A DNA stretch of 31,225 nt from Candidatus Acetothermia bacterium (GTDB taxonomy: Bacteria > Bipolaricaulota > Bipolaricaulia > M55B111). The stretch lies in contig JBKGZT010000009.1 in assembly GCA_046543235.1 (NCBI GenBank), positions 1 through 31,225 on the forward strand. Direction: 5' to 3'. Made by a program: the position numbers and the translations under genes. Shown one piece after another: positions 1,024 to 27,755 of the stretch (position 1 is its first letter; every line of letters starts with the position of its first letter). The notes beneath the pieces were generated by a model. It did not search any database, was not told the DNA's origin, and was given only the letters and a program-made list of their open reading frames with translations.

Positions 1024-2550
1024 CTAAAGAAACAAAAAAAGAGCTATCAGCAAAAACCCGGTAAAAACGGACACAAGTGAGTTTTCAAGGTTGAAGATAA
1101 AGGCTGGGGGATCGATTTCCTTTAGTGGTTTCCAGATGCCTGCCAGGAACAGACCGCCAACCAGGACCACCCCAACCGAAGTAATTACGTCCCTGAATTC
1201 CAACAACTCGACGAACCGCTCCGGCCCCGGTACCACGAAAACCACCCCGCCCGAGAAGGCGACCAAAAGGGCAAAGAGGATCAGGAGGAAATCGCTTTGG
1301 GCAAATTCTCTGCCGGTATCCTGTCGTAGCAGCGCATAACCCAGACGCAGGTAGTAAGCCGCAGTAAGGACGCTAATCCCCAGTACCAGATACCAAGAAG
1401 CTCCAGGAAGGGAATTATGCAGAACCTCCTTGCTGAAAAAACCGTTGAAGGGAACGACGCCCATGACGGAAAGAGAACCGACGACCAAGCCGAGCTTGCT
1501 GGCAAGCGGCAGGGGAGAGCCGCCTTTAATAAACATATCTCTTTTTCCCACCCCCGCATGGCCAATCGACAGGAAAAGCAGGGCTTTCAGCAGACCGTGG
1601 AAAAACAGGTGAAGGGCGGCGGCTGTAACTCCCAGACGCGTTCCAGAAGAGACCCCGATCAGGATCAGACCGACCTGAGAAATCGTGGAGTAGGCAAGGA
1701 TTTTCTTCGGAATTTGACTTATCAGCGCGAACCCCGCCCCGCCCAAGCCCGTTAGTCCACCGATTATGAGGAGAGGAGTCCCGATCCCCCCGATTTCGGA
1801 CAGTCGAACTATACCAACCAGCCCGAACTTGGTAGCTATCCCGGCCAGCAGCGCGGAAACGACCGTCCCGCTGTAGGTATAGGCATCGGGAAGCCACATG
1901 CTGAACAAAAGCACCCCACCCTTGACGGCCAGCCCGGTTGCTAAGAGGCCCACCCCCAGCAGCGTGCTGAACTCACCGCCCCGGGCGAGCGTGGAGGCCA
2001 GCTCCTCTATCCCGAGAGAGCCCCCATTCATGTAGATGATTCCCAGACCGATAAGGTAGAGGCTCATGGCCAAAGAGGAAAGCAGGAGGTACTTGATCCC
2101 GGCATATATTCCGTAGGTTTCTCGCTCGTAACCTATCAACAGGATGGAAATCAGCGACATTAGCTCGATGGTTACGTAGATGTTAAACAGGTCGTGGGAA
2201 AAGGCCAGGGAAAACGCCGTGGCAAAGAGGAAGTTAAAGAGGCCGTAAAAGGTGGCCTCCTTTTCCTCGTCCGAACTGAGATAAATCAGCGCTATGACGT
2301 TCAGTACTACCGCCAGCCCGGCGAACAGGACGGTGATCTGATCTAACTTAAGCTCTATTCCCAGCCTGCCCCAGTTTCCCAGATGGGTGACGGCGGAACC
2401 CGAATTAAAATAGGAGGCCACAGCAATGGAAAGACCGGCCGTTCCGCCAACCCAGCCCAGAAAACTGAAAGGCCTCCTGAACCTATGAAAAGTCAGGCTC
2501 AGTATTCCCGCGGTGAGGTAAGAAGTAACGCCGATGAGAAGAGGGATCAT
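1024..2550 (-). CDS. mnhD: Mrp/Mnh Na+/H+ antiporter subunit D (MbhH-like, Proton_antipo_M family)
   Basis: 508 aa, about 14 TM. Motifs DLFNIYVTIELM, AGIKYLL, K-GG-LFSMWLPDAY, KKILAYSTISQVG, HGLLKALLF and PFNGFFSKE. Confidence 0.92.
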   Translation of the reverse strand: MIPLLIGVTSYLTAGILSLTFHRFRRPFSFLGWVGGTAGLSIAVASYFNSGSAVTHLGNWGRLGIELKLDQITVLFAGLAVVLNVIALIYLSSDEEKEATFYGLFNFLFATAFSLAFSHDLFNIYVTIELMSLISILLIGYERETYGIYAGIKYLLLSSLAMSLYLIGLGIIYMNGGSLGIEELASTLARGGEFSTLLGVGLLATGLAVKGGVLLFSMWLPDAYTYSGTVVSALLAGIATKFGLVGIVRLSEIGGIGTPLLIIGGLTGLGGAGFALISQIPKKILAYSTISQVGLILIGVSSGTRLGVTAAALHLFFHGLLKALLFLSIGHAGVGKRDMFIKGGSPLPLASKLGLVVGSLSVMGVVPFNGFFSKEVLHNSLPGASWYLVLGISVLTAAYYLRLGYALLRQDTGREFAQSDFLLILFALLVAFSGGVVFVVPGPERFVELLEFRDVITSVGVVLVGGLFLAGIWKPLKEIDPPAFIFNLENSLVSVFTGFLLIALFLFL

Positions 2551-2909
2551 GACGTCTCCTCCTCGAACTCCTCCCTGACGAAGCCCTCGATCTTGCCGAC
2601 GTCCAGCGTATGGTAACGTTTCACCAGGACCATGGTAAACAACAGTGAAAGCGCAAGAACCCCGAAGTTAATCACGATCGAGGTCAAAACAAGGGCCTGC
2701 GGAAGCGGGTCGGCGTACTGGACTCCGACTTCCGGACCTATGGGTGCCCTGTCGCCGGTCCGGTATACCACCAGGACGAAAAACAGGATCGTCGCCGTAT
2801 TAACTATATTCAGACTTAACAGCTTCATCAAAAGGTTCCTCTTAAGGATGAGCCCGGCGGAACCGACGACAACGATGACTATCGAGATCGCGGCGACAAA
2901 GTCGCTCAT
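2547..2909 (-). CDS. mnhC: Mrp/Mnh subunit C (MbhG-like)
   Basis: Motifs KRNLLMKLLSLNI and ADPLPQALVLTSIVI. Start is ATG at 2909 with a GGAGG SD and an ATGA overlap with the upstream stop. The ORF-track start at 3017 is too long. Confidence 0.92.
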   Translation of the reverse strand: MSDFVAAISIVIVVVGSAGLILKRNLLMKLLSLNIVNTATILFFVLVVYRTGDRAPIGPEVGVQYADPLPQALVLTSIVINFGVLALSLLFTMVLVKRYHTLDVGKIEGFVREEFEEETS

Positions 2910-3610
2910 ACCTCCCCCCTGTGTTTCACGAAGAAATGGAGGATGGCCCAGGTCCCGATAAACACTTTCAACCCGATAGCCATGTTGACCGCGATAATTA
3001 CCCCGACACCGGACCAATCATCGTACGCCGCTCCCGGGTAAAAAATCCCGGCAATTCCAACAAACAGAGCAAATACCAGCACCAGGTATTCCACCCGCTT
3101 CATCGCGTCTTCCTGAAACCTCCTCCCGGTCTCGTCGGCACCCTGTGAGAGCGCGAGCAAGAGAATCCCGCTCCCCCCGATTACACCCGCAGCAAAACCG
3201 CCACCAGGCCCCAGGTGAGCGCTAAAGGCCAGGTAGAACCCAAATACCGCCAGAATCGGGTAGAGAAAGGAAGCCGACGCGGTAACCACGTGGGATTCGA
3301 TGAGCTTAGACTTCCCCGAACCGGCCGGGGTTTCCAGATCCGAGAAGATGGTGATACCCAGGACCGCCGTGGAGAATATCATCAGCTCGAACAACGTGTC
3401 GTAAAACCGAAAGATACCGTAGACACCGAAGACTGCGTTGGAGACGTTCTCGAGCTCGAATCCCCTCTGAAGATAGAGTCGGCCGACCCTCTCTCCGGCG
3501 GGTTCACTTCCGATGAAGAGTGCCAGGACGGTGAGAACGCCGAAGGAGGATACAAGACCTATCACGACCAACTTTCGCACCGACGGAGAAAGCCTGCCCA
3601 TTCTCATCAC
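2906..3610 (-). CDS. mnhB: Mrp/Mnh subunit B (MbhE+MbhF-like)
   Basis: Motifs NAVFGVYGIFRFYDTLFE and AHLGPGGGFAAGVI. Confidence 0.9.
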   Translation of the reverse strand: MMRMGRLSPSVRKLVVIGLVSSFGVLTVLALFIGSEPAGERVGRLYLQRGFELENVSNAVFGVYGIFRFYDTLFELMIFSTAVLGITIFSDLETPAGSGKSKLIESHVVTASASFLYPILAVFGFYLAFSAHLGPGGGFAAGVIGGSGILLLALSQGADETGRRFQEDAMKRVEYLVLVFALFVGIAGIFYPGAAYDDWSGVGVIIAVNMAIGLKVFIGTWAILHFFVKHRGEV

Positions 3611-4524
3611 CTGAAGTACTTTTTATGAAGTCCGTCAATTTGTCCCGACCGATCCAGGCCTCTCAGATAATCGTTCAAGTCCTCGAGAAGCTCCTCCTCC
3701 CCGGCCGGTACCGCAAACCCGTATTCGACCTCGCCTATCGCGACTATCTCGCTGTCGTCCCTCAATTCGGCGTCTATCCGGTAGAGGGCGTTAGAGATCC
3801 GCCCCGAATCCGCCACGAAAGCGCCGATATCCCCTCCATTATATGCTTTCACGACCTCCTCAAGCGAGTCAAATTTGACGACCCTATCCGGATCCAGCTC
3901 CTGCACCATTGTAATTCGCCTAATTTCTCCAACCCGAAACGGCCCCTCTTCCTCGAGCCCCACGTCCCCGGGTTCCTGGTTTACCACGAAGTCGAGTTCC
4001 GGCAGGACTCCGGTCCGACCCCCTTCGTCCCGAGAGTTGACGACCTTGGCCAGCTGGGCTTTGTGAAAGGGCTCCGTATTTCTCAGGCCATCATAGGGCA
4101 AAAAGCCGGGGAAATAAGCACCGGCAATCAGGTCAGCCCTCCTTCCTCCGATCAGCCCGGTCAATTCTCCCGGAGCCACGAACTCGACCTCCAGATCCAG
4201 GCTGATTTCCTCGGCAAAACCCTCCAGGATTTCCAGTTCGATCCCCCGTAATTCACCCTTTTCCTGGAATAGGAAAGGGGGCACCTCCGCGGCAACCACA
4301 TGCAGCTTCCCCTGATCACTCAAGGCAAGTACGTAGATAAACGTGACGAAGGCCACACCTATAGCCCCCTCCGTTACCGCTACGTCCGGCGCACCCACGA
4401 GAAAATAAACGGCGGAACTCATCAGGCTGAACACACCGAGGAGGATAACAGCGTTTAACAGTCTCTCCTGAAAGAGAACCGCGAGGGCGAGGGCGAGGAG
4501 GAGCAGGGTAAAGAGTACCAGCAT
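3607..4524 (-). CDS. DUF4040/MbhD-like Mrp subunit fused to a C-terminal family-3 (PBPb) solute-binding-like domain
   Basis: Residues 1-70 have 3 TM helices with GAPDVAVTEGAIG (DUF4040). Residues ~72-305 carry PPFLFQEKGELRGIELEI, ADLIAGA, FDSLEEVVKA..G.IGAFVAD, YGFAV and LLEDLNDYLRGLDRSGQIDGLHKKYF, typical of SBP_bac_3. Confidence 0.85.
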   Translation of the reverse strand: MLVLFTLLLLALALAVLFQERLLNAVILLGVFSLMSSAVYFLVGAPDVAVTEGAIGVAFVTFIYVLALSDQGKLHVVAAEVPPFLFQEKGELRGIELEILEGFAEEISLDLEVEFVAPGELTGLIGGRRADLIAGAYFPGFLPYDGLRNTEPFHKAQLAKVVNSRDEGGRTGVLPELDFVVNQEPGDVGLEEEGPFRVGEIRRITMVQELDPDRVVKFDSLEEVVKAYNGGDIGAFVADSGRISNALYRIDAELRDDSEIVAIGEVEYGFAVPAGEEELLEDLNDYLRGLDRSGQIDGLHKKYFR

Positions 4525-4526
4525 TT

Positions 4527-4838
4527 TTACTCCTCCCCGTCCCGGTCAGGGGTCTTCGATGGCTCCACCTTGGAAAGGAAGGCGGACTTCGCGATGGAGT
4601 GAGTTACTATCGGTCCCGTGACGAAGAAAAAGAAGGCCAGCAGGGCAAGGAACGAATCGGAAAAACTAAACCCGTTTCTGAGCAAGAAACCCAATAGAAT
4701 AATAATTACCCCCACGGTGTCCGAGGCGCCGCTCGCCTGGAGGCGAGAGTAGATGTCGGGCAAGGCAGCTATTCCGTAGGACCCGATAAGGGTTACCAGT
4801 AGACCAAGATAAATCAGTATCAGGGAAATGACGTTCAT
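4527..4838 (-). CDS. mnhG: Mrp/Mnh subunit G
   Basis: Motifs GIAALPDIYSRLQASGASDTVG and TGPIVTHSIAKSA. Confidence 0.92.
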   Translation of the reverse strand: MNVISLILIYLGLLVTLIGSYGIAALPDIYSRLQASGASDTVGVIIILLGFLLRNGFSFSDSFLALLAFFFFVTGPIVTHSIAKSAFLSKVEPSKTPDRDGEE

Positions 4839-5086
4839 ACTTCACGCTCAATATATCTGGCTATTATGACTATCCCGAGAAAACTCAGGATCGCGTAAAT
4901 CAACGCGAGATTGACAAATACCGTTCTGCCCTTAAACACACCTTCTACCGCCAGCAAGATAACTATCTTCGCGCTAACAGAACTATACCCCAGCAGGCGA
5001 TTCAGGACGTCAGGACCGCGGAATAACCTGTACAGCGTGAGGACCAGGCTAATCCCGACTAACACCTGGATCGTGATCCTTAACAT
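4835..5086 (-). CDS. mnhF: Mrp/Mnh subunit F
   Basis: Motifs YRLFRGPDVLNRL and LALIYAILSFLGIVIIARYI. Confidence 0.92.
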   Translation of the reverse strand: MLRITIQVLVGISLVLTLYRLFRGPDVLNRLLGYSSVSAKIVILLAVEGVFKGRTVFVNLALIYAILSFLGIVIIARYIEREV

Positions 5087-5089
5087 CCC

Positions 5090-5605
5090 TTATCCCTGCA
5101 ACTCCTTCAACGGCTCCTCGAAGTCGGAGCGAATCTTATCTACCATTTCCTCGTACTCGTCCTGCCCCTTGAGGTCAATATGATGTACGTAGACCAGGTT
5201 ACCCTCGGAGAGTATGGCAATGGTTATCGGCGTCAGGGTGATAGAGTTCAGCAAGAAAAGCTTGCCGGAACCGGACTTCAGCCCGGTATCGTAGACTACA
5301 ATCCGCCCTTCGACGCCACCGGTCACTATAAGGTAGCAGGTGCGGACGGTGGACCTTCCTATTTCGTAGAAAAGACGGAAGAAGAACCGTAACCAAAGCA
5401 GCGGGCGTCCCAGTGATTCGATCGGCGTATCTATCGATAGCCCGAACCTGCGAAAGAGAAAGAGCACGAGCCCCACGACGAATATTCCGCCGACCAGGTA
5501 GACGAGGCCCAGATCGCGGAAAAGCACCACCCAGAGCAAGTATAGCGTGGCGGACCCAAACAAGTAACTCAGCAAGATTTTGATGTTCTTGGGGAGTCTG
5601 CTCAT
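5090..5605 (-). CDS. mnhE: Mrp/Mnh subunit E
   Basis: Motif LLNSITLTP...VYVHHID. First gene of the operon. Confidence 0.9.
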   Translation of the reverse strand: MSRLPKNIKILLSYLFGSATLYLLWVVLFRDLGLVYLVGGIFVVGLVLFLFRRFGLSIDTPIESLGRPLLWLRFFFRLFYEIGRSTVRTCYLIVTGGVEGRIVVYDTGLKSGSGKLFLLNSITLTPITIAILSEGNLVYVHHIDLKGQDEYEEMVDKIRSDFEEPLKELQG

Positions 5606-6022: not shown

Positions 6023-7105
6023 ATGAAAGAAGAGGTCTCACGGAAGGATAACGTGACGATCAAGGACGTCGCGAAGGAAGCCGGAGTCGCTACCTCGACG
6101 GCTTCCATGGCGTTGAACAACAAACCCACCATTAGCACCAGGACGAAAGAAACAGTACTCGAAGCCGCTCAGAAGCTCGGCTACCACCCGACTGCCGCCG
6201 CTCGCGCCCTCGTCGACGGCAAACCAAGCAACCTGGGTCTTCTGATTCCGGTAAAGGTCGACAACCTCTTCTTTTCGACCGGCTTCTTCCAGAAGCTGAT
6301 CTCCGGGATGAGCAAGGCAACCAAAGAAGCGGGAAACATCATCTCCCTCCAGGTCGTCGAAACCCGCGAGGAGACAGCGGAACAGATCACCAGGGCGTGG
6401 AAGACCAAGAACATTAGCGGTTCCATAATTACGCACCCCACAACCGAAATGCCGTACTTGGACGTTATAGAGGAATACGACTACCCCGTGGTATTTCTGG
6501 GCGAACCCCCGAGGGACTTCCCTTACGTGGATAACGACAACTTCAACGCGGCAAAGACGGCGACAGGTCACCTGATAGAACACGAACACGAGAAGATCGG
6601 CTTTCTAGGCGGGCCGGATGACCTGATTGCCTCCGGGGCGAGAGAGCGGGGGTACAGGACGGCCATGGAGTCGGCGGGGATCAAAGTCCAACCCGAATAC
6701 ATCTGGAGTGCCGAGCATACCGAACAGAGCGCATATCGGGAGGTAATGAAGAGGGGAGAACAACTGGACTTCACGGCGATCTGTATCTCGGTAGAAGAGC
6801 AGATGCCCGGCGTCTACCGGGCCCTGAGGGACCTGGAACTCTCGATTCCGGACGACGTCGCCCTGATCACGCTGGGGGACTCCCAGCTCGCAAGACATAT
6901 CAACCCGCCGATGACGGTCCTAGATCTGCATACCGAGAAGCTCGGTTACTTAGCGGCGAAGAAATTGAATCAGGCCATTAACGGGAAACAAGAGACCACC
7001 AGGAGAAAAGTCGAAACGGACTTAATCACGAGAAGCTCCTGCGGTTGTAATTCAAATCAAGGAGGTGGTAAAAACATAATCCAGGTGAATTCAGGTAGGT
7101 CCTGA
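6023..7105 (+). CDS. LacI family transcriptional regulator
   Basis: N-terminal HTH VTIKDVAKEAGVATSTASMALN, hinge LGYHPTAAARAL, and a sugar-binding domain with IPDDVALI...LITRSSCG. Confidence 0.95.
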   Translation: MKEEVSRKDNVTIKDVAKEAGVATSTASMALNNKPTISTRTKETVLEAAQKLGYHPTAAARALVDGKPSNLGLLIPVKVDNLFFSTGFFQKLISGMSKATKEAGNIISLQVVETREETAEQITRAWKTKNISGSIITHPTTEMPYLDVIEEYDYPVVFLGEPPRDFPYVDNDNFNAAKTATGHLIEHEHEKIGFLGGPDDLIASGARERGYRTAMESAGIKVQPEYIWSAEHTEQSAYREVMKRGEQLDFTAICISVEEQMPGVYRALRDLELSIPDDVALITLGDSQLARHINPPMTVLDLHTEKLGYLAAKKLNQAINGKQETTRRKVETDLITRSSCGCNSNQGGGKNIIQVNSGRS

Positions 7106-7160
7106 TCGCAAGACTATTTAGAACGATTTCACACACTTTCAAAAAGGAGGGAGTATAAGA

Positions 7161-8483
7161 ATGAGAAACAAAAAGCTCTCGACAGTACTGATTCTAACCG
7201 TAGTGCTTAGCCTTGGTCTGGTATTTTCAGGTGCCGTAACGGCGTTCGGAGAGGATGATAAGGTAACTTTTGTTACCAGCTTTGGCGGAGATGAGCTGGA
7301 TGTATTTAAAGACTTGATGGATCAATTTACTGAAGACACAGGAATTGAAGTAGAGGTGCAGGCGGTAAGCCGTAACATGAGGACTGCACTCGGTTCACGC
7401 GTCGAGGCAGGTAATCCACCCGACATGGCCAACCTGCCGAATCCGGGATTGATGAAGAACTTCGCCCGAAAAGACCAAATCGCCCCGATCGAATGGTTCA
7501 AGGAGACGGATCTGGCGGACAAGCAGGCCGGCGGATTTTTAGCCTCCGGCACTTATAACGATACGCTTTACGGCGTCGTGCCGGGCGCAAGCCTTAAGAG
7601 CCTGGTCTGGTACAACAAGAAGGTATTCGAGGAAGAAGGCTACGAGGTCCCTGAGACGTTGGGCGAGCTCCTCCAGCTCCAGAACCAAATGGTGGAGGAC
7701 GGCTACACTCCGTGGGCCTTCGGCCTGGAAAGCGGAGACGCAACCGGTTGGCCGGGCACGGACTGGATCGAGGACATAATGCTCCGCTCCGCCGGACCGG
7801 AAGTCTACGATAAGTGGGTAAACCACGACATCGCCTGGACGAACCCTCAGGTAGCGCAAGCATTTAGGATCTTTGATCTTTTCATCAACGACGAGATGGT
7901 AATGGGCGGAAGGGAGGGCGCTTCGACGATCGACTTCGGCGACTCAGTACAGTACATACTGCCGACCCAGGAAATGGACGAACCGAGGGCACTGATGCAC
8001 AGGCAGGCGACCTTCATCCAGGACTTCCTCGAGGACGCCCACCCGGACGCCGAGGTAGGTGAGGACTACGACACGTTCATCTTCCCCTCCTTCGGGAAAG
8101 GATCGCCCCCGATACTTGTAGGTGGGGATATATTTATCTCCTTCAGAGACAAGCCCGAAGTCAGGGAATTGATCAAGTACTTCGCCTCGGCTGACATCCA
8201 GCAAACCTGGGTCGAGGAAAACCCGGGCCGCCTTGCCGTAAACGTGGACGTTCCGCTCTCCGCTTACCCCAACGACACGCTCAGAAACGCTGCACAGGCT
8301 CTCAAGGAAGCGGAGACGGCGAGGTTTGACGGTTCCGATTCCATGCCGGCGGCAGTCGGTTCCGGCGAGTTCTTCACGGCAATGAACAACTTCGTCCAGG
8401 GCAAAACCTCACTGAACGAGGTCCTCGAGTCTCTGGAGACCAGCGCGGACGATGCCTATGACACGGGCGAAGCCACTGACTAA
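7161..8483 (+). CDS. Carbohydrate ABC transporter substrate-binding protein (AglE-like, alpha-glucoside type)
   Basis: Signal peptide. Motifs AGNPPDMA, KSLVWYNK, GLESGDATGWPGTDWIEDIMLR and RFDGSDSMPAAVG. Strong SD AAGGAGG. Confidence 0.9.
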   Translation: MRNKKLSTVLILTVVLSLGLVFSGAVTAFGEDDKVTFVTSFGGDELDVFKDLMDQFTEDTGIEVEVQAVSRNMRTALGSRVEAGNPPDMANLPNPGLMKNFARKDQIAPIEWFKETDLADKQAGGFLASGTYNDTLYGVVPGASLKSLVWYNKKVFEEEGYEVPETLGELLQLQNQMVEDGYTPWAFGLESGDATGWPGTDWIEDIMLRSAGPEVYDKWVNHDIAWTNPQVAQAFRIFDLFINDEMVMGGREGASTIDFGDSVQYILPTQEMDEPRALMHRQATFIQDFLEDAHPDAEVGEDYDTFIFPSFGKGSPPILVGGDIFISFRDKPEVRELIKYFASADIQQTWVEENPGRLAVNVDVPLSAYPNDTLRNAAQALKEAETARFDGSDSMPAAVGSGEFFTAMNNFVQGKTSLNEVLESLETSADDAYDTGEATD

Positions 8484-8503
8484 GTTCTAAATAATCGGTA
8501 GCC

Positions 8504-8535
8504 AGGAAGGCGGGGTTTTCCCGCCTTCCTTTTTT
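8504..8535 (+). terminator. Stem-loop after the SBP gene (partial terminator or mRNA stabiliser)
   Basis: AGGAAGGCGGG-GTTTT-CCCGCCTTCCT followed by a T run. Confidence 0.8.
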
Positions 8536-8554
8536 CATTAAGGGAGGAAAAACT

Positions 8555-9826
8555 ATGAGAGATCGCAAATTCGTCTCGTTTCTCTTCGTTGGGCCGGCTC
8601 TCCTGATAGTGGGATTTTTTCTTTTCTATCCCACTATAATTACTACTTACACCAGCTTTTTGGGAACGGTAGATATGCAGGGGGCATTTCCTTCCGGAGG
8701 CTTCGTCGGGGTACAAAATTACGTGGATATCTTGAGTTCGACAAATACGCTCATCGCCTTCCGCAACACGATGCTCTGGCTGGTAGTTATGACTACCTTT
8801 ACAATCGGCTTCGGCCTGATCCTGGCCGTATTGCTCGACAGGGTACCCTACGAGTCGGTGGCCAAATCGCTGATCTTCATGCCTATGGCCGTTTCATTCA
8901 CAGCGGCTTCCATCATCTGGAAGTTTGTCTATGCTTACCGCCCACCCGGCTTTGCCCAGATAGGGCTCTTGAACTCACTGCTTGACAGCATCGGGGATTT
9001 TGCCTCTCGTTCGGGCGTTAACGGCGCCCTGAACATCACGTTTACCGGACTCGCGATAATATCCGCGGTCCTCGGCTTGCTCGCCTTACTAAAAGGGCTC
9101 TGGAAGACGGTAAATACCTGGAAGGAGGACCGCAGGATAGATTGGATAGGCTGGGCAGTCGTCGTCGGTTTTCTGCTCCTCGCCGCCTGGTATTCTCTCG
9201 GTTTGGCGGGTGCTCGCGAGGGATCATCCACGATGGGAATCGCCGGGCAGTTCTTACTGGTCTTTGGCCTTGTAACCCTGGGAGCCGCGGCGTTAAGGGA
9301 TAACTCGTTTGGACCCCCATTGATGGGTTCCCTGATTTTGCTCGGTCTGGTCGACTTCACCCTCTCGCAGGTCGGGTTCCAGCCGACCACCTGGCTGATG
9401 GACCGGCCCTGGACGAACAACCTGGCTCTGATAGTCATGGGAATATGGGTCTGGACCGGATTCGCCATGGTGATGCTTTCCGCCGCCTATAAAGGTATAC
9501 CCCAGTCGATGATCGAGGCAGCCAGAGTCGACGGGGCAAACGAGCTTCAGGTGTTCTGGCACGTCACCATACCGTACATGAAAACGACGATAATAGCTAC
9601 CACGACGACGATAGTCATCTTCGTCTTGAAGATATTTGACTTCGTCTGGGTAACTACAAACGGGGAATACGGCACGGACGTCCTGGCGAGCCTGATGATC
9701 CGGCAGATGTACAGCTTCTATAACTACGAGCGAGCCAGCGCCCTGGCCGTAGTACTATTCGTGCTAACCGTCCCGTTTGTGATAATAAACATCCGCCGAT
9801 TCCAAGCTCGGGAGGCAATAAGATGA
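8555..9826 (+). CDS. Carbohydrate ABC permease (MalF/AglF-like) with an internal hydrophobic insertion
   Basis: Motifs KSLIFMPMAVSF, QIGLLNSLL, the EAA loop IEAARVDGANELQVF and KIFDFVW. Confidence 0.92.
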   Translation: MRDRKFVSFLFVGPALLIVGFFLFYPTIITTYTSFLGTVDMQGAFPSGGFVGVQNYVDILSSTNTLIAFRNTMLWLVVMTTFTIGFGLILAVLLDRVPYESVAKSLIFMPMAVSFTAASIIWKFVYAYRPPGFAQIGLLNSLLDSIGDFASRSGVNGALNITFTGLAIISAVLGLLALLKGLWKTVNTWKEDRRIDWIGWAVVVGFLLLAAWYSLGLAGAREGSSTMGIAGQFLLVFGLVTLGAAALRDNSFGPPLMGSLILLGLVDFTLSQVGFQPTTWLMDRPWTNNLALIVMGIWVWTGFAMVMLSAAYKGIPQSMIEAARVDGANELQVFWHVTIPYMKTTIIATTTTIVIFVLKIFDFVWVTTNGEYGTDVLASLMIRQMYSFYNYERASALAVVLFVLTVPFVIINIRRFQAREAIR

Positions 9827-10680
9827 TTCAAAAATTACTGCGACTTTTCTCTAGGGTACCGCTTCACGTAATAGTAATATTGCTTTGTATAGTCTGGCTC
9901 CTACCCACCCTGGGTATATTCGTCAGTTCCTTTAGGCCATCAAACGACATAATGACCTCCGGCTGGTGGGAGGTTTTCCTGGACCCCGCCGACCCGGGGA
10001 ACTACACGATTGATAACTATAAATCAGTCCTATTCGGCAACAATATCTGGCGCTCTTTCATAAACAGCTTTATAATCGCGATCCCGTCGACCTTCCTCTC
10101 CCTATTCTTTGCGGCCCTTGCCGGCTACGCCTTCGCATGGCTGCACTTTCCCGGTAGAAATATCCTGTTCCTCACGATCGTCGGCCTGATAGTCGTGCCG
10201 CTCCAGATGACCTTTATCCCTATACTGAAAATCTATTCAAATACCGGGTTATATGGAAGCTACGTAGGCATATGGCTTGCCCACGCCGGCTATGGCATGC
10301 CGTTAATGATCTACATGATGCGTAACTTCATGGGCGGGTTACCAAAAGAACTATTCGAGTCCGCGTTCATCGACGGCGCATCCGTATGGACGGCTTTTAC
10401 GCGATTGGTCGTTCCGCTCTCGAAGCCGGTGATAGCATCTCTGGCGATATTCCAGTTCCTCTGGATCTGGAACGATCTGATAGTCGCGCTAATTTATATG
10501 CCGGAACCGTCCAAGGCACCGATAACCCTGACTATCGCCAACCTGGTCGGATCCGAAGGTCAGTCCTGGCACCTGCTACTACCAGCCGCTTTTGTCTCGA
10601 TGGTATTACCCCTGGTAGTCTTCTTCTCCTTACAGAAGTACTTCGTCCGCGGTCTGACTGCAGGCGCAGTAAAGGGGTAA
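9823..10680 (+). CDS. Carbohydrate ABC permease (MalG/AglG-like)
   Basis: Motifs ELFESAFIDGAS, FQFLWIWNDL and LQKYFVRGLTAGAVKG. Confidence 0.95.
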   Translation: MIQKLLRLFSRVPLHVIVILLCIVWLLPTLGIFVSSFRPSNDIMTSGWWEVFLDPADPGNYTIDNYKSVLFGNNIWRSFINSFIIAIPSTFLSLFFAALAGYAFAWLHFPGRNILFLTIVGLIVVPLQMTFIPILKIYSNTGLYGSYVGIWLAHAGYGMPLMIYMMRNFMGGLPKELFESAFIDGASVWTAFTRLVVPLSKPVIASLAIFQFLWIWNDLIVALIYMPEPSKAPITLTIANLVGSEGQSWHLLLPAAFVSMVLPLVVFFSLQKYFVRGLTAGAVKG

Positions 10681-10702
10681 TGGAGGGAAAAGGAGCCAAA
10701 TA

Positions 10703-12196
10703 TTGTTCATCAGTTTCTTAAACCCTCAGGGTAACTTCGATCCGGAAGACAGCTACTGGATGGAGCACCCGGACTTCGGAGGCCAGCTCGTCTACGTCAA
10801 GGAGACGGCGCTGGCCCTGGCCGAACTGGGGCACAGGGTGGATATAGTCACCAGGCAGTTCGACGACCCGGATTGGCCCGAGTTCTCGGAGCGGATAGAC
10901 CGTTACCCGGAATCCGATAATGTCAGGATAGTCAGAATTCCCTGCGGGCCGGACGAGTTCCTGCCAAAAGAACGACTCTGGCCCCACCTGGGAACGGACT
11001 GGCTGGACGGGATCATCGGCTTCTACGAATCGGAGGATGAATTTCCCGATGTAGCTACGACTCACTACGGCGACGGTGGGCTGGTCGGCGCCTTGCTGAA
11101 GGATGAGACCGGCATTCCTTATACCTTCACCGGCCACTCCCTCGGCGCCCAGAAGATGGACCGGTTCGACGTTTCCCGTGATAACCTGGAGGAACTGGAC
11201 GATCGATTCAACTTCGCCAGAAGAATTTTTGCCGAAAGGGTCGCGATGAACCGGGCGGACAGGGTAATCACCAGCACCAACCAGGAACGATACAATCAGT
11301 ACGGTCATCCGGCCTACGAGGGCGCCCTCTCCGTCGAGGACGACGAGAAATTCTCCGTGATCCCTCCGGGTGTCAACAGAAGAGTCTTCAACGAGGAAGA
11401 GGGCGAAGAGGACGAAAGGGTATCCAGGCGAATTCGGTCCGTGTTGACCAGGGATTTACCACCGGACAGGCGGGATCTGCCGCTGGTGATATGTTCCAGC
11501 CGGCTTGACAGGAAGAAAAACCACCTGGGACTGGTTAGCGCCTTCGTTCGTTCGGAAAAGCTGCGGGATCTGGCCAACCTGGCGATAGTGGTCCGTGGGG
11601 CGGACAACCCCCTCGAAGAACGGGAAAAATACGAAGGAGAGGCGAAGGAAATACTCGACGAGCTGGGGGCCACCATCCAGGAAAACGACATAACGGACGC
11701 CGTGACTTCCTTCCCCCTCGAGAACCAGAAAGAGCTGGCAGCGGCTTACCGGTGGGCAAAGGACAGGAGGTCAGTATTCGCCCTGACCGCCCTTTACGAA
11801 CCGTTTGGCCTTGCCCCGCTCGAGGCCATGAGCTGTGGCCTTCCCGCCGTCGTTACCGACCAGGGCGGCCCAACTGAGAGCATGGTTGATTCCGATACAG
11901 GGGAAGAATTTGGTGTGCTAATCGACCCCAAAGATCCGGAAGGGATAGCTAGAGGGTTACTCAGATTACTGGACTCCAAGGAGGCATGGGAAAGATTTAG
12001 CCTGGCCGGCAAGGCCCGGGTACTGACTCGCTACACCTGGGAAGAAACTGCAAGAAGCTATTTACGGGTTCTGGAGAATATCAGTGACCAGGCTGATGCA
12101 GGCGAACCTGAACTACTCATTCCGGACTACTTTAGAAATCCATCCCCGGAAACGGATATAGAGCTAGAACGGCTGGCTGGTCTTTATTTTGCCTAA
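10703..12196 (+). CDS. sps: Sucrose-phosphate synthase (GT4, single-domain Halothermothrix orenii type)
   Basis: FLNPQGNFDPEDSYWMEHPDFGGQLVYVKE, TTHYGDGG, FTGHSLGAQK, SSRLDRKKNH and ALYEPFGLAPLEAMSCGLP closely match H. orenii SPS motifs as recalled. TTG start with AAGGAG SD. Confidence 0.88.
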   Translation: MFISFLNPQGNFDPEDSYWMEHPDFGGQLVYVKETALALAELGHRVDIVTRQFDDPDWPEFSERIDRYPESDNVRIVRIPCGPDEFLPKERLWPHLGTDWLDGIIGFYESEDEFPDVATTHYGDGGLVGALLKDETGIPYTFTGHSLGAQKMDRFDVSRDNLEELDDRFNFARRIFAERVAMNRADRVITSTNQERYNQYGHPAYEGALSVEDDEKFSVIPPGVNRRVFNEEEGEEDERVSRRIRSVLTRDLPPDRRDLPLVICSSRLDRKKNHLGLVSAFVRSEKLRDLANLAIVVRGADNPLEEREKYEGEAKEILDELGATIQENDITDAVTSFPLENQKELAAAYRWAKDRRSVFALTALYEPFGLAPLEAMSCGLPAVVTDQGGPTESMVDSDTGEEFGVLIDPKDPEGIARGLLRLLDSKEAWERFSLAGKARVLTRYTWEETARSYLRVLENISDQADAGEPELLIPDYFRNPSPETDIELERLAGLYFA

Positions 12197-23032: not shown

Positions 23033-24487
23033 ATGAGTGATAGATACGACGTTTTAGTGATCGGTGCTGGTGTGATAGGCTGTGGGATTGCCCGCGAGCT
23101 GTCGAGGTACGATCTAGAAGTAGGGGTTCTGGAGAAGAGACCTGACGTGGGCTGGGGGACGACGAAGGCAAATAGCGGCATAGTTCACGCAGGTTACGAC
23201 GCAAAGCCGGGTACTGTCAAGGCGTCCTTCTCCGCTCCAGGAAACAAGAAGTACGGGGAATGGGCTGAGGACCTCTCGGTTCCGTTCAAGAGGATTGGAT
23301 CTTTCGTCTCCGCAAAGGACGAAGGCAGGATCGGGAAACTGGATAAGTTGTTTCAGCAGGGTGAGGAGAACGGGGTTGAGGACCTGGAGATAATCACGGA
23401 TAGGGGGAGGATAGAGGAGCTGGAGCCAAACATAACGGAGGAAGTTGAGGCGGTATTGTACGCACCGACAGCCGGGGTTATAGCTCCGTACAAACTGACG
23501 ATTGCCTTGTTCGAGAACGCCCGTGAGAACGGAGTCGAATTCCATTTTGATTCTCCCGTTGTAGACGTCGAGAAAGACGACGAAGTCGACGGATCGGGCT
23601 TTGAGGTAAAAGCCGGTGGCTCCGCTTACGAGGGCGACTTCCTGATCAACGCGGCCGGAATTCACTCCGACGAAATAGCTGGCCTGGTTGGCGATGATAG
23701 TTTCTCCATACACCCGGCCCGGGGTGAGTACCATTTGCTGGATAGCGAGATAGGTGAATACGTCAGGAGGATTAACTTTCCCCTTCCTTCGAAAGAAAGC
23801 AAGGGGATACTGGTGACGCCCGCTGCTGAAGGAAGCATCATATTCGGGCCAAACCATCAACCCCTGGAGGAACCTTCTGTTGCAACTACGAAAGCCGGCC
23901 TGAACGAAGTGCTCGACGGGGCGAAGAAGCTGTTTCCTGAGATCGATACCGGGAAGATAAGAACGAACTTCGCTGGCCTGCGAGCCAAGGCCGACTCGGA
24001 TGATTTCGTGATCGGCGAATCCGATGCCGCGGATAAATTCATCAACGTAGCCGGCATCCAGTCGCCCGGCCTTACGGCGGCGCCGGCAATCTCGGAGCAC
24101 GTCGTCGGTTTACTTGAGGAGTTAGGCCTGACGCTTACTGAAGATCCCGATTTCGACCCAGAAAGGGAGCCAATCCCCAGGTTCGCGGAGATGAGCCTCG
24201 AGGAAATTTCCCGGTATACCGACGAGTACGGGGCTGCAAAAGAGGTAGTCTGTCGCTGTGAAGAGGTGACCAGAGCGGAGATCGAGGAAGCGATCGATCG
24301 AGGTGCGAGTACTCTGGACGGGATTAAGTTCAGGACGAGATCCCGTATGGGTAGCTGTCAGGGCGGTTTTTGTACGCCCAGGCTGATCGAAATTCTATCG
24401 GATAAGCTTGGCATTTCACCAAAGGAAGTAACTAAGAAGGGAGATAACTCTAATCTGTTGACCGAAGAAACAAAGAAGGTCGAGTAA
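23033..24487 (+). CDS. glpA: FAD-dependent oxidoreductase with a C-terminal BFD-like [2Fe-2S] domain, probable glycerol-3-phosphate dehydrogenase large subunit
   Basis: Motifs IGAGVIG, TTKANSGIVHAGYD, GIQSPGLTAAPAI and VCRCEEVT...RTRSRMGSCQGGFC. Co-located with glpK. Confidence 0.82.
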   Translation: MSDRYDVLVIGAGVIGCGIARELSRYDLEVGVLEKRPDVGWGTTKANSGIVHAGYDAKPGTVKASFSAPGNKKYGEWAEDLSVPFKRIGSFVSAKDEGRIGKLDKLFQQGEENGVEDLEIITDRGRIEELEPNITEEVEAVLYAPTAGVIAPYKLTIALFENARENGVEFHFDSPVVDVEKDDEVDGSGFEVKAGGSAYEGDFLINAAGIHSDEIAGLVGDDSFSIHPARGEYHLLDSEIGEYVRRINFPLPSKESKGILVTPAAEGSIIFGPNHQPLEEPSVATTKAGLNEVLDGAKKLFPEIDTGKIRTNFAGLRAKADSDDFVIGESDAADKFINVAGIQSPGLTAAPAISEHVVGLLEELGLTLTEDPDFDPEREPIPRFAEMSLEEISRYTDEYGAAKEVVCRCEEVTRAEIEEAIDRGASTLDGIKFRTRSRMGSCQGGFCTPRLIEILSDKLGISPKEVTKKGDNSNLLTEETKKVE

Positions 24488-24489
24488 CC

Positions 24490-25746
24490 ATGAACTTGAA
24501 TACAGAAAATATAAAGAAGGACATCGTGGTGGTCGGTGGCGGTCCTGCCGGTATGGCAGCCGGTCTCCGTGGCGCCGAAGAGGGCGCCGAGGTGATGATC
24601 GTTGAACGGGATATAGAACTGGGTGGAATCCTCAACCAGTGTATTCATAACGGATTTGGTGTCGAGATTTACGGGGAAGAGCTTACGGGACCGGAGTACG
24701 CGGAGAGGTTCACGAGCCAGATAGGGGAAAGCTCGGTTGATGTCAGGCTAAATACTTACGTACTCACTATGAATCCGGACAAGTCAATGACGCTGCTGAG
24801 TCCGGATGGACTGCTCGAGGTCGAGGCGAAAGCCGTGGTTCTGGCGACCGGGGCAAGGGAGAGGTCGCGGGGAGAAATTCGGATACCGGGCGATCGACCG
24901 GCCGGAGTAATGCCGGCTGGCACGGCCCAGGAACTGATAAATAAGAAGGGTTTCCTGCCGGGCAAGAAGGTATTTGTCCTTGGTTCCGGAGATATCGGTC
25001 TAATAATCTCCAGGAGGTTGACCTGGGAAGGGGCCGAGGTCGTCGGCGTTGCCGAGATAATGGATTACCCGACTGGGTTGAACAGAAACGTAGTTCAGTG
25101 CCTTCATGATTATGACATCCCGCTCCACCTGAGCCATACGGTGACGGATATTTACGGTTCCAACAGACTTGAGGGGATAGAGCTTTCGCGGGTAGACGAG
25201 AACCTGCAGCCTATTGAGGGTACGGGGAAGGACATCGATGTTGACTTGCTGCTGCTATCGGTCGGGCTGGTACCGGAGAACGACTTTTTTAAAGAGACCG
25301 GAGTTACGCTATCCCGGAAAACCCGTGGGCCGATAGTGGACGAGTGGTTCCAGACCGACGTCCCGGGTATCTTTGGCTGCGGAAATTCCGTTCACATAGA
25401 GGATCTCGTGGACTGGGTAACCATGGACGGTTACAGGGCAGGCGACGGTGCGGTAGCTTACGCCGGCAATGGAGGTTTGCCGAATTCGGAAAAGGACGTA
25501 GTTCCTGGAGAGAACGTTGACTACGTGGTTCCTCAAAAGGTTAGCGCGGAAGACGGCTTCCGCTTCGCCCTGCGGGTTGAGAAGCCGATGGAGAATGCCG
25601 ACATCGCGATCAAGGGTACCGATATCTCCTTCTTCGAACAGATAGTAACTCCGGGGGAAATGGAGGTCAAAGAAGTGGAAGAAGGGAACCTGGAGGGACT
25701 TCAGGATCTGGACGAGGTCGAGATAGAAGTTACGAGGAGGTTCTGA
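24490..25746 (+). CDS. NAD(P)/FAD-dependent oxidoreductase (partner subunit of the G3P dehydrogenase)
   Basis: Motifs GGGPAGMAA, LGGILNQCIHNGFG, LTGPEYA, ATGARER, GSGDIGLI and GIFGCGN. Confidence 0.88.
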   Translation: MNLNTENIKKDIVVVGGGPAGMAAGLRGAEEGAEVMIVERDIELGGILNQCIHNGFGVEIYGEELTGPEYAERFTSQIGESSVDVRLNTYVLTMNPDKSMTLLSPDGLLEVEAKAVVLATGARERSRGEIRIPGDRPAGVMPAGTAQELINKKGFLPGKKVFVLGSGDIGLIISRRLTWEGAEVVGVAEIMDYPTGLNRNVVQCLHDYDIPLHLSHTVTDIYGSNRLEGIELSRVDENLQPIEGTGKDIDVDLLLLSVGLVPENDFFKETGVTLSRKTRGPIVDEWFQTDVPGIFGCGNSVHIEDLVDWVTMDGYRAGDGAVAYAGNGGLPNSEKDVVPGENVDYVVPQKVSAEDGFRFALRVEKPMENADIAIKGTDISFFEQIVTPGEMEVKEVEEGNLEGLQDLDEVEIEVTRRF

Positions 25747-26141
25747 TGCCGAAAAAAGAGTATACCTGCGTCGCCTGTCCCAAGGGCTGTACGGTGGAAG
25801 TGGAATTCGAGGGTGACGAAATCAAGGACATTTCCGGCTACAGCTGTGCCAAAGGAGAAGAGTACGTAAAGAGCGAGTTCCACGACCCTCGGAGAATACT
25901 GACTACGACGGTGAAGATAAAAGGAGCAAAATACCCGAGAATCCCTGTAAGGACGGAAACCGGCGTCCCTAAGGACGAACTTGACTGCTGTCTCGATAAA
26001 TTGAACGACGTCGAGCTGGAAGCTCCAGTGGGAGTGGGGGATGTCGTCATAGAAGACGTCTGTGGGACGGGTATTCCCGTAGTTACGAGCAGATCTCTGG
26101 ATAGGATAACGGAAGAGGAGAAAGAATTAGCTCGGGTATAA
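25746..26141 (+). CDS. DUF1667 family CxxC metal-binding protein
   Basis: Motifs TCVACPKGC, GYSCAKGEEY and PRRILTTTV. Typical third gene of this cluster. Confidence 0.88.
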   Translation: MPKKEYTCVACPKGCTVEVEFEGDEIKDISGYSCAKGEEYVKSEFHDPRRILTTTVKIKGAKYPRIPVRTETGVPKDELDCCLDKLNDVELEAPVGVGDVVIEDVCGTGIPVVTSRSLDRITEEEKELARV

Positions 26142-26162
26142 GGGAACCTCTCCGATTTTTTC

Positions 26163-26187
26163 AGTGGCCCCTTTAGGGGGTACTTTT
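26163..26187 (+). terminator. Weak hairpin or terminator between DUF1667 and glpK
   Basis: AGTG-G-CCCC-TTTA-GGGG-G-TACT followed by TTT. Confidence 0.4.
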
Positions 26188-26264
26188 GCTGATTACCTGA
26201 ATTATCGCTGATTTTGTAGGATTCGTTTTTTCGATTATTGACCCATAGAGGTGGTGTCCGAGGT

Positions 26265-27755
26265 ATGAACCAATTCGTCGGCGCAATCGACCAGGGTACG
26301 ACCGGAACGAGGTTTATAGTATTCGACCACGAGGGCAATCAGATTAGCTCCGCTTACCGCGAGCACGAGCAAATTTACCCCAAGCCGGGCTGGATCGAAC
26401 ACGACCCGGATGAGATTTGGGAAAAGTTGCGGGTAGTGGCCGAGGAAGCTCTCGAAGATGCTGGTTTGAAGGCCGAGGATCTGGTTAGTATAGGTATTAC
26501 GAATCAGCGAGAGACGGTCTTCACCTGGAACCAGAAGGGAGAACCGCTGCACAACGGGATCGTCTGGCAGGACCGCCGGACTTCCGATAGATGCGAGGAA
26601 CTCGAGGGAACCCAGGTTGGAGAAGTGGTAAGGGCGAAGACGGGCCTCCGTCTGGATCCATATTTTTCCGCCACGAAAATCGAGTGGCTGCTGGAAAACG
26701 TTGATGGTTTAAGGAAGATGGCGGAAAGCGGGGAAGCCATGTTCGGGACGATCGAGAGCTGGCTAATCTGGAAGTTGACCGGCGGGGAAGTCTACGTTAC
26801 CGACCACACGAACGCGTCCAGGACGATGCTTTTCGACATCGAAGAAAAGGACTGGGACGGGGAGCTGATGGATTTCTTCGGCGTTCCTAGGGAGAGCCTA
26901 CCGGAGCCGGTGGAAAACGTAAAAAGGTACGGAGAAGTCAGCAACCTGGAGACTTTGAATGGGGTACCTATTGGCGCCGCCCTGGGGGATCAGCAGGCCG
27001 CAATGTTTGGTCAGGGATGTTATGATCCGGGAGAAGGCAAAAACACCTACGGTACCGGTTCGTTCCTGCTCGTCAACGTCGGGGATCGGCCCTGTTTTAG
27101 CGAGAAACTGCTTACCACGATTGGGTTTTCCGTCGACGGAGAAACCAACTACGCCCTGGAGGGTTCAATTTACTCGACCGGCGCTACTATACAGTGGCTC
27201 CGGGATGGTCTGGATATCATTGAGGAAGCGGCCGAAAGCGAGGATCTTGCTAGAAGCCTTGACGGTAATGATGGAGTATACCTGGTGCCCGCGTTCGCCG
27301 GTCTGGGTGCCCCGCACTGGGATTCCAACGCAAGGGGGACGATAGTTGGTTTGACCCGTGGCAGTGACGAAAGGCATCTAGCCCGTGCCGGACTGGAATC
27401 CATCGCCTACCAGGTGGAAGACGTACTGAGAGCCATGAGAGAAGAAGCCGATAGGGAGCTCGAGGAACTCAGGGTCGATGGAGGAGCGGCCGAAAACGAC
27501 TTCCTTTGCCAGTTCCAGAGCGATATTTCGTCCCTTCCGGTGGTAAGAACCGGCGTTTTCGAATCCTCCGCACTTGGGGCGGCTTACGCTGCGGGTTTGG
27601 CATTGGATTTCTGGGAGGACCTGGACGAGCTGAAGGAATTGATAAAGAAACACGGGACTCAGAGGTTTGACTCCGACATGGCTCCTGGTAAAAGAGAGAA
27701 ACTTTACGATCGCTGGAAGGAGGCCGTCAGGAGGGCGAAGAATTGGGATCGATAA
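26265..27755 (+). CDS. glpK: Glycerol kinase
   Basis: Motifs AIDQGTTGTR, GITNQRET, IVWQDRRT, DPYFSATK, TDHTNASRT, GDQQAA, KNTYGTGSF, YALEGS and RVDGGA. ATG at 26265. Confidence 0.97.
   Translation: MNQFVGAIDQGTTGTRFIVFDHEGNQISSAYREHEQIYPKPGWIEHDPDEIWEKLRVVAEEALEDAGLKAEDLVSIGITNQRETVFTWNQKGEPLHNGIVWQDRRTSDRCEELEGTQVGEVVRAKTGLRLDPYFSATKIEWLLENVDGLRKMAESGEAMFGTIESWLIWKLTGGEVYVTDHTNASRTMLFDIEEKDWDGELMDFFGVPRESLPEPVENVKRYGEVSNLETLNGVPIGAALGDQQAAMFGQGCYDPGEGKNTYGTGSFLLVNVGDRPCFSEKLLTTIGFSVDGETNYALEGSIYSTGATIQWLRDGLDIIEEAAESEDLARSLDGNDGVYLVPAFAGLGAPHWDSNARGTIVGLTRGSDERHLARAGLESIAYQVEDVLRAMREEADRELEELRVDGGAAENDFLCQFQSDISSLPVVRTGVFESSALGAAYAAGLALDFWEDLDELKELIKKHGTQRFDSDMAPGKREKLYDRWKEAVRRAKNWDR

Follow-up and report, generated by a model that had tools for sequence, protein, structure and literature searches.

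An MbhD-type Mrp subunit fused to an SBP_bac_3 domain in a group 3 Mrp operon of Bipolaricaulota

The fusion gene and its operon

The DNA analyzed here, referred to as the window, is a stretch of 31,225 nucleotides from Candidatus Acetothermia bacterium (Bipolaricaulota; assembly GCA_046543235.1, contig JBKGZT010000009.1, positions 1 to 31,225). Its reverse strand carries an operon of Mrp antiporter subunits, one gene of which encodes an MbhD-type (DUF4040) membrane subunit joined to a soluble domain of the solute-binding protein (SBP) family SBP_bac_3. This fusion gene, at 3607..4524 (-), is a single uninterrupted open reading frame (ORF) of 305 amino acids (aa) with an ATG start, and no stop codon lies between its two parts. 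In Pfam, PF13244 (MbhD) matched residues 7-70 at 58.8 bits (gathering score 27.2), and PF00497 (SBP_bac_3) matched residues 77-304 at 40.5 bits (gathering score 26.4). With both matches above the gathering score, the original prediction, that an MbhD subunit runs here without a stop into a soluble SBP_bac_3-like domain, holds. Among the NCBIfam models, the protein stayed below every cut-off (best 44.6 bits versus 272). Since the solved MbhD and MbsD chains are only 96 and 94 aa long, respectively, the approximately 235 extra residues of the window protein are a real addition. The SBP domain has a pI of 4.38 and a net charge of -25; this acidity is unspecific, because the entire proteome is acidic and other members of the fusion family range up to pI 9.

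The gene is tightly embedded among its neighbors. The TAA stop of mrpG (4529-4527) is followed, after two bases, by the ATG of the fusion gene (4524-4522), and a Shine-Dalgarno-like GGAGGAG precedes it. At the other end, the TGA of the fusion gene (3609-3607) overlaps the candidate starts GTG 3610 and ATG 3607 of the next gene, for which another ATG is found at 3601. The stop/start overlap and the nearly adjacent mrpG stop with its GGAGGAG agree with the translational coupling that had been proposed for this gene. Similarly, the mrpG start and the mrpF stop overlap by 4 nt, and the mrpC ATG forms an ATGA overlap with the stop of the preceding gene; the resulting 120-aa form of MrpC aligns end to end with its relatives.

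Group 3 Mrp systems, with a stand-alone type of the order mrpEFGBB'CD, have been defined previously (PMC8415708). In the window operon the MrpE, MrpF, MrpG, MbhD/MbhE, MnhB, MrpC and MrpD domains are all present, and the mrpA N-terminal pump gene is absent. Judged by gene content and order, the operon is a tightly coupled stand-alone group 3 Mrp, mrpE-F-G-[mbhD-SBP]-[mbhE+mnhB]-C-D (Table 1), and its predicted activity, assigned from gene content, is that of a cation/proton antiporter. In the mbhE+mnhB protein the MbhE match covers residues 18-92 at 18.1 bits, below the Pfam cut-off of 27, and NF009219 was matched at 96.1 bits, which is below its NCBIfam cut-off. With regard to MrpE, the homologue in the Anoxybacillus Mrp has been described to possess a cytoplasm-exposed ferredoxin-fold domain (PMC7419157). 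The operon of the fusion gene contains Mrp subunits only, with neither an ABC permease nor an ATPase, and the other ABC systems of the window have binding proteins of their own. It is flanked by a DUF599 gene and a LacI-family regulator, both on the opposite strand, and no hydrogenase or other redox genes were found in its flanks in the window annotation.

Table 1. Positions of the Mrp operon genes and of the parts of the fusion gene in the window.
Feature	Position	Strand	Description
mrpE	5090..5605	-	171 aa; first gene of the operon; Pfam MNHE 77.6 bits
mrpF	4835..5086	-	83 aa; Pfam MrpF_PhaF 49.6 bits
mrpG	4527..4838	-	103 aa; Pfam PhaG_MnhG_YufB 68.3 bits; NCBIfam TIGR01300 67.4 bits (cut-off 63.1)
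Shine-Dalgarno-like GGAGGAG	4530..4536	-	within the mrpG 3' end, 5 nt upstream of the fusion-gene ATG
MbhD/DUF4040 part of the fusion gene	4312..4524	-	residues 1-71; three transmembrane (TM) helices; APDVAVTE motif; E52 as Na+-site glutamate
SBP_bac_3 / type II binding-protein-fold domain	3610..4311	-	residues 72-305; beta-strand 1 from residue 73
TGA stop of the fusion gene	3607..3609	-	read from the sequence
mbhE + mnhB fusion	2906..3610	-	234 aa; MbsE-like arrangement; Pfam MnhB 67 bits, residues 110-221
mrpC	2547..2909	-	120 aa from ATG 2909; Pfam Oxidored_q2 67.2 bits (longer ORF); NuoK-like
mrpD	1024..2550	-	508 aa; sole antiporter-like subunit of the operon; Pfam Proton_antipo_M 155.4 bits

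Conservation and distribution of the fusion

A word-indexed search (E<=0.001) retrieved 51 homologues, 50 of which carry both Pfam families, at identities from 100% to 36%; seven of the 51 are named Candidatus Bipolaricaulota, Bipolaricaulia or Acetothermia at NCBI. To cover the phylum, a profile from alignment A1 (33 of the 51 homologues) was run against 184 species genomes. Some profile match was found in 135 of them. In about 113 of the 184, according to a manual count of the table, the match extends beyond the MbhD part (best E<=2e-28), and the remaining 22 of the 135 have the MbhD part only. Among the better genomes (>=90% complete, <=5% contaminated), 47 of 71 had some match, and two families of the phylum (0/18 and 0/9 genomes) had no profile match at all. 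The gene order E-F-G-[MbhD-SBP]-[MbhE+B]-C-D was conserved in all six loci cut from other families of the phylum. Two runs of one hypersaline study each yielded an unbroken Logan contig across positions 3400-4900 that differs from the window by 1-2 bases and is free of indels; these contigs lend weak independent support, because either run may be the source sample. In one relative (G031:C8:2653-3449) the MbhD part (profile 3-79) and the binding-protein part (83-278) lie in two adjacent frames, representing either a split form or a frameshift.

Beyond the phylum, an exhaustive search of 1.84 billion cluster representatives yielded 376 proteins at E<=0.001. Of 48 distant cluster representatives that were scanned, 44 matched both families at E<=0.01, and the SBP_bac_3 gathering score was exceeded in 27. 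A pairing of the two families this frequent lies well outside what chance would give. Short fused forms of 231-249 aa occur in clusters named Thermotogota, Thermotogaceae and Kosmotogaceae, one of them from Marinitoga litoralis (WP_205097533.1), which bears out the earlier suspicion that shorter extensions of this kind may exist in Thermotogota. A single-sequence scan with the Marinitoga protein gave a lone 32-residue match in Pollutimonas, which was judged spurious. A 290-aa form (the P0070 group, hereafter the Atribacterota type) is named Atribacterota in two rows and Candidatus Nealsonbacteria once. Of the 120 matches listed in a search with this form, 58 carry both families, and 53 loci of it were recovered in a metagenome scan. 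In the one annotated locus (L062), the order is E-F-G-[MbhD-SBP]-MbhE-MnhB-C-D-D. The SBP_bac_3 score of the Atribacterota type is 97.7-106.2 bits, against 40.5 in the window protein. Fused forms of 535-2000 aa were not found, which is weak evidence of their absence. The 338-aa protein P0098 carries about 90 extra N-terminal residues, with MbhD at 99-161 and SBP_bac_3 at 179-336, and may be a further fusion or have a mis-called start.

The original prediction would have been undermined by a fusion confined to one assembly; the fusion proved widespread. An assembly chimera or a stop codon lost in a single genome can hardly account for its presence throughout the species genomes and homologues described above, for its recurrence in named proteins of two further phyla and in the Atribacterota-type metagenome loci, or for contigs of other runs that span the junction. 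The adjacent frames in the G031 relative are the one observation that might be brought forward for such an artefact, and we count them as no actual support, so that this explanation has practically no chance of being correct.

Predicted fold of the soluble domain

An AlphaFold2 model computed on alignment A1 (mean pLDDT 80.9, pTM 0.70) contains helices at residues 2-17, 22-42 and 46-71, followed after one residue by a beta-strand (73-78) that opens an alpha/beta domain. This domain is modelled as two alpha/beta lobes joined by a hinge, with a TMt of 0.74-0.77 to GlnBP and ArgBP. Confidence is low only at residues 186-206; this segment (3910-3972) is a 21-residue acidic insertion of lobe 2, seen in alignment A1 only in the 305-aa forms nearest to the window protein. 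In a Foldseek search against PDB, amino-acid binders came first, namely T. maritima ArgBP (6svf, E 2.6e-16), GlnBP (1wdn, TMt 0.76) and AncQR (4zv1), and AncQR was also the best sequence match of the SBP part (E 7.9e-7). As modelled, the C-terminal part thus adopts the type II fold of periplasmic binding proteins. The original prediction had staked its case on this fold, and AlphaFold2 and Foldseek agree with it.

The short Thermotogota-type form P0121 (alignment A3, pLDDT 89.4) was predicted with the same three helices and a soluble part of 156 residues. Its soluble part matches the same binding proteins about half-way, the best TMt being 0.60 as compared with 0.77 for the window form, and GluR0 cores are among its fold matches. 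In an alignment of 187 fused proteins, the median span of lobe 2 drops from 74 residues for the Atribacterota type to 65 for the close Bipolaricaulota group and 16 for the Thermotogota-named clusters. Because the Thermotogota forms are almost devoid of lobe 2, a function common to the whole family cannot be Venus-flytrap closure.

Binding cleft

In amino-acid binders such as GlnBP and HisJ, a Thr/Ser and an Arg of lobe 1 hold the carboxylate of the ligand and an Asp of lobe 2 holds the amino group. The equivalents in the window protein are Y137 for the Thr, L142 for the Arg and D239 for the Asp, and its other canonical contact positions, as located by motif mapping from the GlnBP contacts, are mostly hydrophobic. 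The clamp Arg is present in none of the 45 close relatives, of which 4 lack the anchoring motif. In the Atribacterota type, Thr and Arg are found together in 60 of 70 proteins and Thr with His in another 7. The Asp equivalent is kept almost everywhere (45/45 close relatives, 70/70 Atribacterota type, 183/187 of all fused proteins). Of the clamp that marks the amino-acid-binding subfamily, the window protein retains the Asp alone, and the label 'amino-acid-binding' that it was originally given is not supported.

The residue three positions after the Asp also follows the lineages. It is Arg in 44/45 close relatives and in 27/34 other representatives, Lys, His or Arg in 36/38 Thermotogota-type proteins and Glu in 69/70 of the Atribacterota type; thus, a basic residue at this site is conserved exactly in the lineages without the lobe 1 Arg. 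Within the close family, the majority fraction is lowest in the middle of lobe 2 (0.31, with 31% gaps), reaching 0.61-0.66 in lobe 1 and 0.86 in the MbhD part. Going by the Thr, Arg and Asp, the ligand gating originally suggested would be more plausible for the Atribacterota forms than for the window protein, and as a whole that suggestion is supported in part.

Membrane side and attachment to the glutamate helix

In a set of 39 diverse fused proteins, Lys and Arg were concentrated in loop 1 (mean of 1.82 per protein) and in the twelve positions that follow TM3 (2.79), with few in the N-terminus (0.21) and loop 2 (0.10). In MrpA, helix HL has been placed on the cytoplasmic side and TM16-25 come after it (PMC7419157; PMC7733839); TM19, which corresponds to the third MbhD helix, therefore ends in the cytoplasm. 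From the charge distribution and the homology to MrpA TM17-19, the SBP domain would most likely be cytoplasmic, in agreement with the side originally proposed for the C-terminus. In mitochondrial complex I, the loop between TMH3 and TMH4 of ND6 lies on the matrix side, which fits the same orientation. The window protein starts with its MbhD membrane domain and has no signal peptide. Since SBP_bac_3 has been described as an extracytosolic family (PMC8050422), a cytoplasmic location is unusual for a family 3 binding domain.

The MbhD part is equivalent to MrpA TM17-19 and NuoJ TM1-3. Over residues 3-70 it was aligned to chain D of both 6cfw and 6u8y (E 1.1e-6 and 4e-5, respectively), and E52 falls on E69 of 6cfw_D. 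According to an eLife paper, MbhD E69 corresponds to MrpA E706. In the Mrp complexes of Anoxybacillus flavithermus and Dietzia, the helix with this key glutamate (E706 / E656) has been described to line the Na+ cavity beside MrpF (PMC7419157; PMC7733839). Mutations of P721, at the end of the E706 helix, were reported to alter the Km for Na+ (same eLife paper); the MrpA-C/MrpF cavity and the end of this helix are thus described as bearing on Na+ affinity. It is at the end of the equivalent helix, the one bearing E52, that the soluble domain of the window protein is attached.

The distance between the APD motif and the first SBP glycine motif was found to be 49-50 residues in 193 of the 195 proteins having both motifs, in all groups, and exactly 50 in 71 of 72 Atribacterota-type proteins. 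In the close family, the junction is the best-conserved segment, with a majority fraction of 0.93. The E52 equivalent is kept in 44/45 Bipolaricaulota-type and 70/70 Atribacterota-type proteins; in the Thermotogota-named clusters, Gln or Ser occupies this position in 20 of 38 proteins.

Origin of the fusion

When the SBP part of the window protein was searched alone, it scored 25-35 bits against Atribacterota-type fused proteins and 45-63 bits against unfused multi-domain proteins. In an MbhD tree of 71 columns and 123 rows, the fused label changed 14 times, at least 5 of these changes being forced by starred branches, versus 38.7 in shuffles; a regular expression was used to assign the label, so some fused rows may have escaped it. 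The almost constant length of the junction favors either a single origin or a strong structural constraint. The SBP domain would descend from an amino-acid-binding protein, and the ancestral fusion was presumably an MbhD subunit joined to a working amino-acid-binding domain, which is how the Atribacterota forms still look. The Bipolaricaulota lineage, including the window gene, would then have lost the amino-acid clamp, and in our reading lobe 2 disappeared almost completely from the Thermotogota forms.

Comparison with known systems

The stand-alone group 3 Mrp of Pyrococcus furiosus (PMC8415708) resembles the window operon in that its seven genes start from E-F-G and include a single MrpD but neither mrpA nor a redox module, and MbhD, MbhE and MnhB parts lie between G and C. 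However, P. furiosus MrpB combines MbhD with MbhE, whereas in the window MbhD is joined to the SBP domain and MbhE to MnhB, the latter being the arrangement of MbsE. For the archaeal complex, no soluble domain is described in the available text of that paper. MbhD (6cfw D) and MbsD (6u8y D) share the APDVA..E motif and the aligned glutamate with the window protein, but they stop about 9-20 residues past the aligned TM3, where the window protein continues for 234 residues. In MrpA the key-glutamate helix is followed by TM20-21 (PMC7419157; PMC7733839), whereas the window protein leaves the membrane into a globular domain, most likely cytoplasmic.

With T. maritima ArgBP (6svf), E. coli GlnBP (1wdn) and AncQR (4zv1) the window domain shares the Asp and a type II fold of two lobes, which Foldseek matched at E 2.6e-16 to 3.6e-15 and TMt 0.74-0.76. 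It differs from them in having no signal peptide and no ABC partner in its operon, in the replacement of the clamp Arg by Leu, and in a shortened and variable lobe 2. In MltF and GlnPQ an SBP_bac_3 domain is likewise covalently attached to a larger machine; these modules are, however, extracytoplasmic and belong to an enzyme or an ABC permease, whereas the window domain is carried by an Mrp/complex I-type subunit. In MltF the SBP module reportedly has a regulatory role. The Atribacterota-type MbhD-SBP proteins have the same junction and the same operon position and are distinguished by their strong SBP_bac_3 score, the Thr and Arg clamp of most of them and a full lobe 2. The resemblance to ligand-gated channels of the GluR0 type is one of principle only.

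No description of an MbhD/DUF4040-SBP fusion was found in the literature searched, the scope of which excluded subscription journals and supplements; within it, the original statement that characterised Mrp, Mbh and Mbs complexes lack such a domain stands. The Hun complex of an Atribacteria preprint is described there as hydrogenase-linked and is distinct from MbhD-SBP. In public databases, the proteins carry automatic names, such as 'transporter substrate-binding domain-containing protein', 'hydrogenase subunit MbhD domain-containing protein' and 'ABC-type amino acid transport substrate-binding protein'.

Host genome and habitat

The genome comprises 1.32 Mb in 97 contigs and is 87% complete. 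Its proteome is acidic, with a median pI of 4.83, 61% of proteins below pI 5 and a D+E content of 16.4% (685 ORFs of >=250 aa). The window stretch was found in metagenomes that one study obtained from hypersaline lakes and microbial mats, and no RNA datasets were among those listed as containing it. The organism is likely a salt-in halophile among the Bipolaricaulota, and the acidic proteome together with the hypersaline metagenomes indicates that ion homeostasis matters to it. A second Mrp cluster is present on another contig of the same genome (C40, 1-3177), so the fused form is not the sole Mrp of the cell. This cluster holds an MrpA/NuoL-like pump gene (at least 480 aa) and a 180-aa MbhD+MbhE protein without a soluble domain, and continues with MnhB, MrpC and the start of MrpD.

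Proposed role of the fused domain

All forms of the family share lobe 1 at a fixed distance from the E52 helix, and for this reason we take as the most likely role, tentatively and with less than even confidence, that the window domain has degenerated into a brace or allosteric cap that covers the Na+ module from the cytoplasm and acts independently of any ligand. The gene product is the MbhD-type subunit of a predicted cation/proton antiporter of the stand-alone group 3 Mrp kind. In the model the third helix, bearing E52, passes directly into beta-strand 1 of the soluble domain, with a junction whose length is fixed, and lobe 1 would sit against the cytoplasmic side of the Na+ module, next to the MrpA-C/MrpF cavity. 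Seated in this way, it could stabilize or bias the E52 helix and hence cation access. Several points weigh against such a role. We only infer that lobe 1 docks on neighboring subunits, and the cleft positions were mapped through sequence alignment and GlnBP contacts rather than coordinates. Moreover, several positions that line the cleft of canonical binders are invariant or nearly so (G135, G172 and D239 in 45/45 close relatives, R242 in 44/45), which also fits a remodelled ligand site. Finally, the Thr, Arg and Asp counts of the Atribacterota type make a ligand-competent cytoplasmic domain plausible there, and regulation may be the ancestral role.

The conserved G135, G172, D239 and R242 also speak for a less probable but close alternative, a remodelled cytoplasmic sensor, in which the lobes would close on an effector other than a standard alpha-amino acid (for example an osmolyte, anion or cation) and closure would gate Na+(K+)/H+ exchange via the rigid junction; this amounts to the gating originally proposed, with another ligand. 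The model shows two complete lobes and a hinge between them, with the similarity to liganded GlnBP and ArgBP noted above; the basic residue three after the Asp occurs just where the lobe 1 Arg is missing; and to a host that is likely a salt-in halophile, ion homeostasis would be important. On the other hand, none of the 45 close relatives has kept the clamp Arg, hydrophobic residues stand at most of the canonical polar contact sites by motif mapping, and lobe 2, with its disordered insertion, is the most variable part of the domain. The Asp and the basic residue also persist in Thermotogota forms without lobe 2, so this motif need not be a ligand site. Binding of a cytoplasmic alpha-amino acid in the manner of GlnBP or ArgBP, which would make the complex a canonical amino-acid-gated antiporter, is very unlikely for the window protein: its top sequence and fold matches are amino-acid binders (4zv1, 6svf) and D239 is kept, but Leu and Tyr occupy the Arg and Thr sites and the Arg is absent from every close relative, so that this mode of action suits the Atribacterota forms instead.

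Two further readings concern what the domain might contact. Lobe 1 or the cleft could serve as a platform on which the Mrp complex recruits a cytoplasmic partner, for example a regulator or a redox module. The redox module of MBH is described as binding its Mrp-like module, on the side opposite to that in complex I, but no conserved partner gene was found beside the operon in the window or in the inspected loci, and we consider this unlikely. An outward-facing domain sensing external solutes would match the normal location of SBP_bac_3 domains (PMC8050422), yet it is contradicted by the 4.6 Lys and Arg residues per protein in loop 1 and after TM3, against 0.3 on the other side, by the MrpA homology, which when counted from cytoplasmic HL puts the C-terminal end inside, and by the next subunit, MbhE, whose start has to lie on the side that it occupies in MrpA; such an extracytoplasmic receptor is highly improbable.

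In Mrp antiporters, the ancestors of the complex I membrane arm, ion coupling and gating are unsettled, and the link of fixed length places a soluble domain on the end of the NuoJ/ND6 TM3-equivalent helix that bears the key glutamate. The family forms a graded series: Atribacterota have the amino-acid clamp intact, Bipolaricaulota show a remodelled cleft, and Thermotogota are left with a single lobe. This three-lineage series therefore offers an experimental handle on antiport via the domain. A bolder proposal, which we regard as doubtful, is that, within the Mrp/complex I superfamily, the MbhD-SBP family would be the first branch to be gated by a ligand. Its Venus-flytrap, lying in the cytoplasm, would read the amino-acid or osmolyte pool and switch cation/proton exchange; Atribacterota would still have the original clamp, whereas the halophilic Bipolaricaulota lineage would have remodelled it to suit another effector. 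If the domain is only a brace, the fusion is a modest addition to Mrp diversity.

Other features of the window

No Rfam families or tRNAs were detected in the window. Directly downstream of mrpD, and convergent with it, lies the DUF599 membrane protein gene (312-1007, +; 90.9 bits). On the other side of the operon, the stretch 6023-12196 (+) begins with the LacI-family regulator, divergent from the mrp operon, and continues with a sugar-type ABC importer and a sucrose-synthase/GT4-like glycosyltransferase; the glycosyltransferase and importer genes are possibly for compatible-solute metabolism. Further along, at 23033-27755 (+), there are glycerol-type genes, encoding an FAD-dependent DAO/BFD oxidoreductase, a pyridine nucleotide-disulphide oxidoreductase and an FGGY kinase, in a region of strong positive GC skew (0.18-0.22). 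The G+C content drops to 0.38-0.43 in the last 3 kb of the window.

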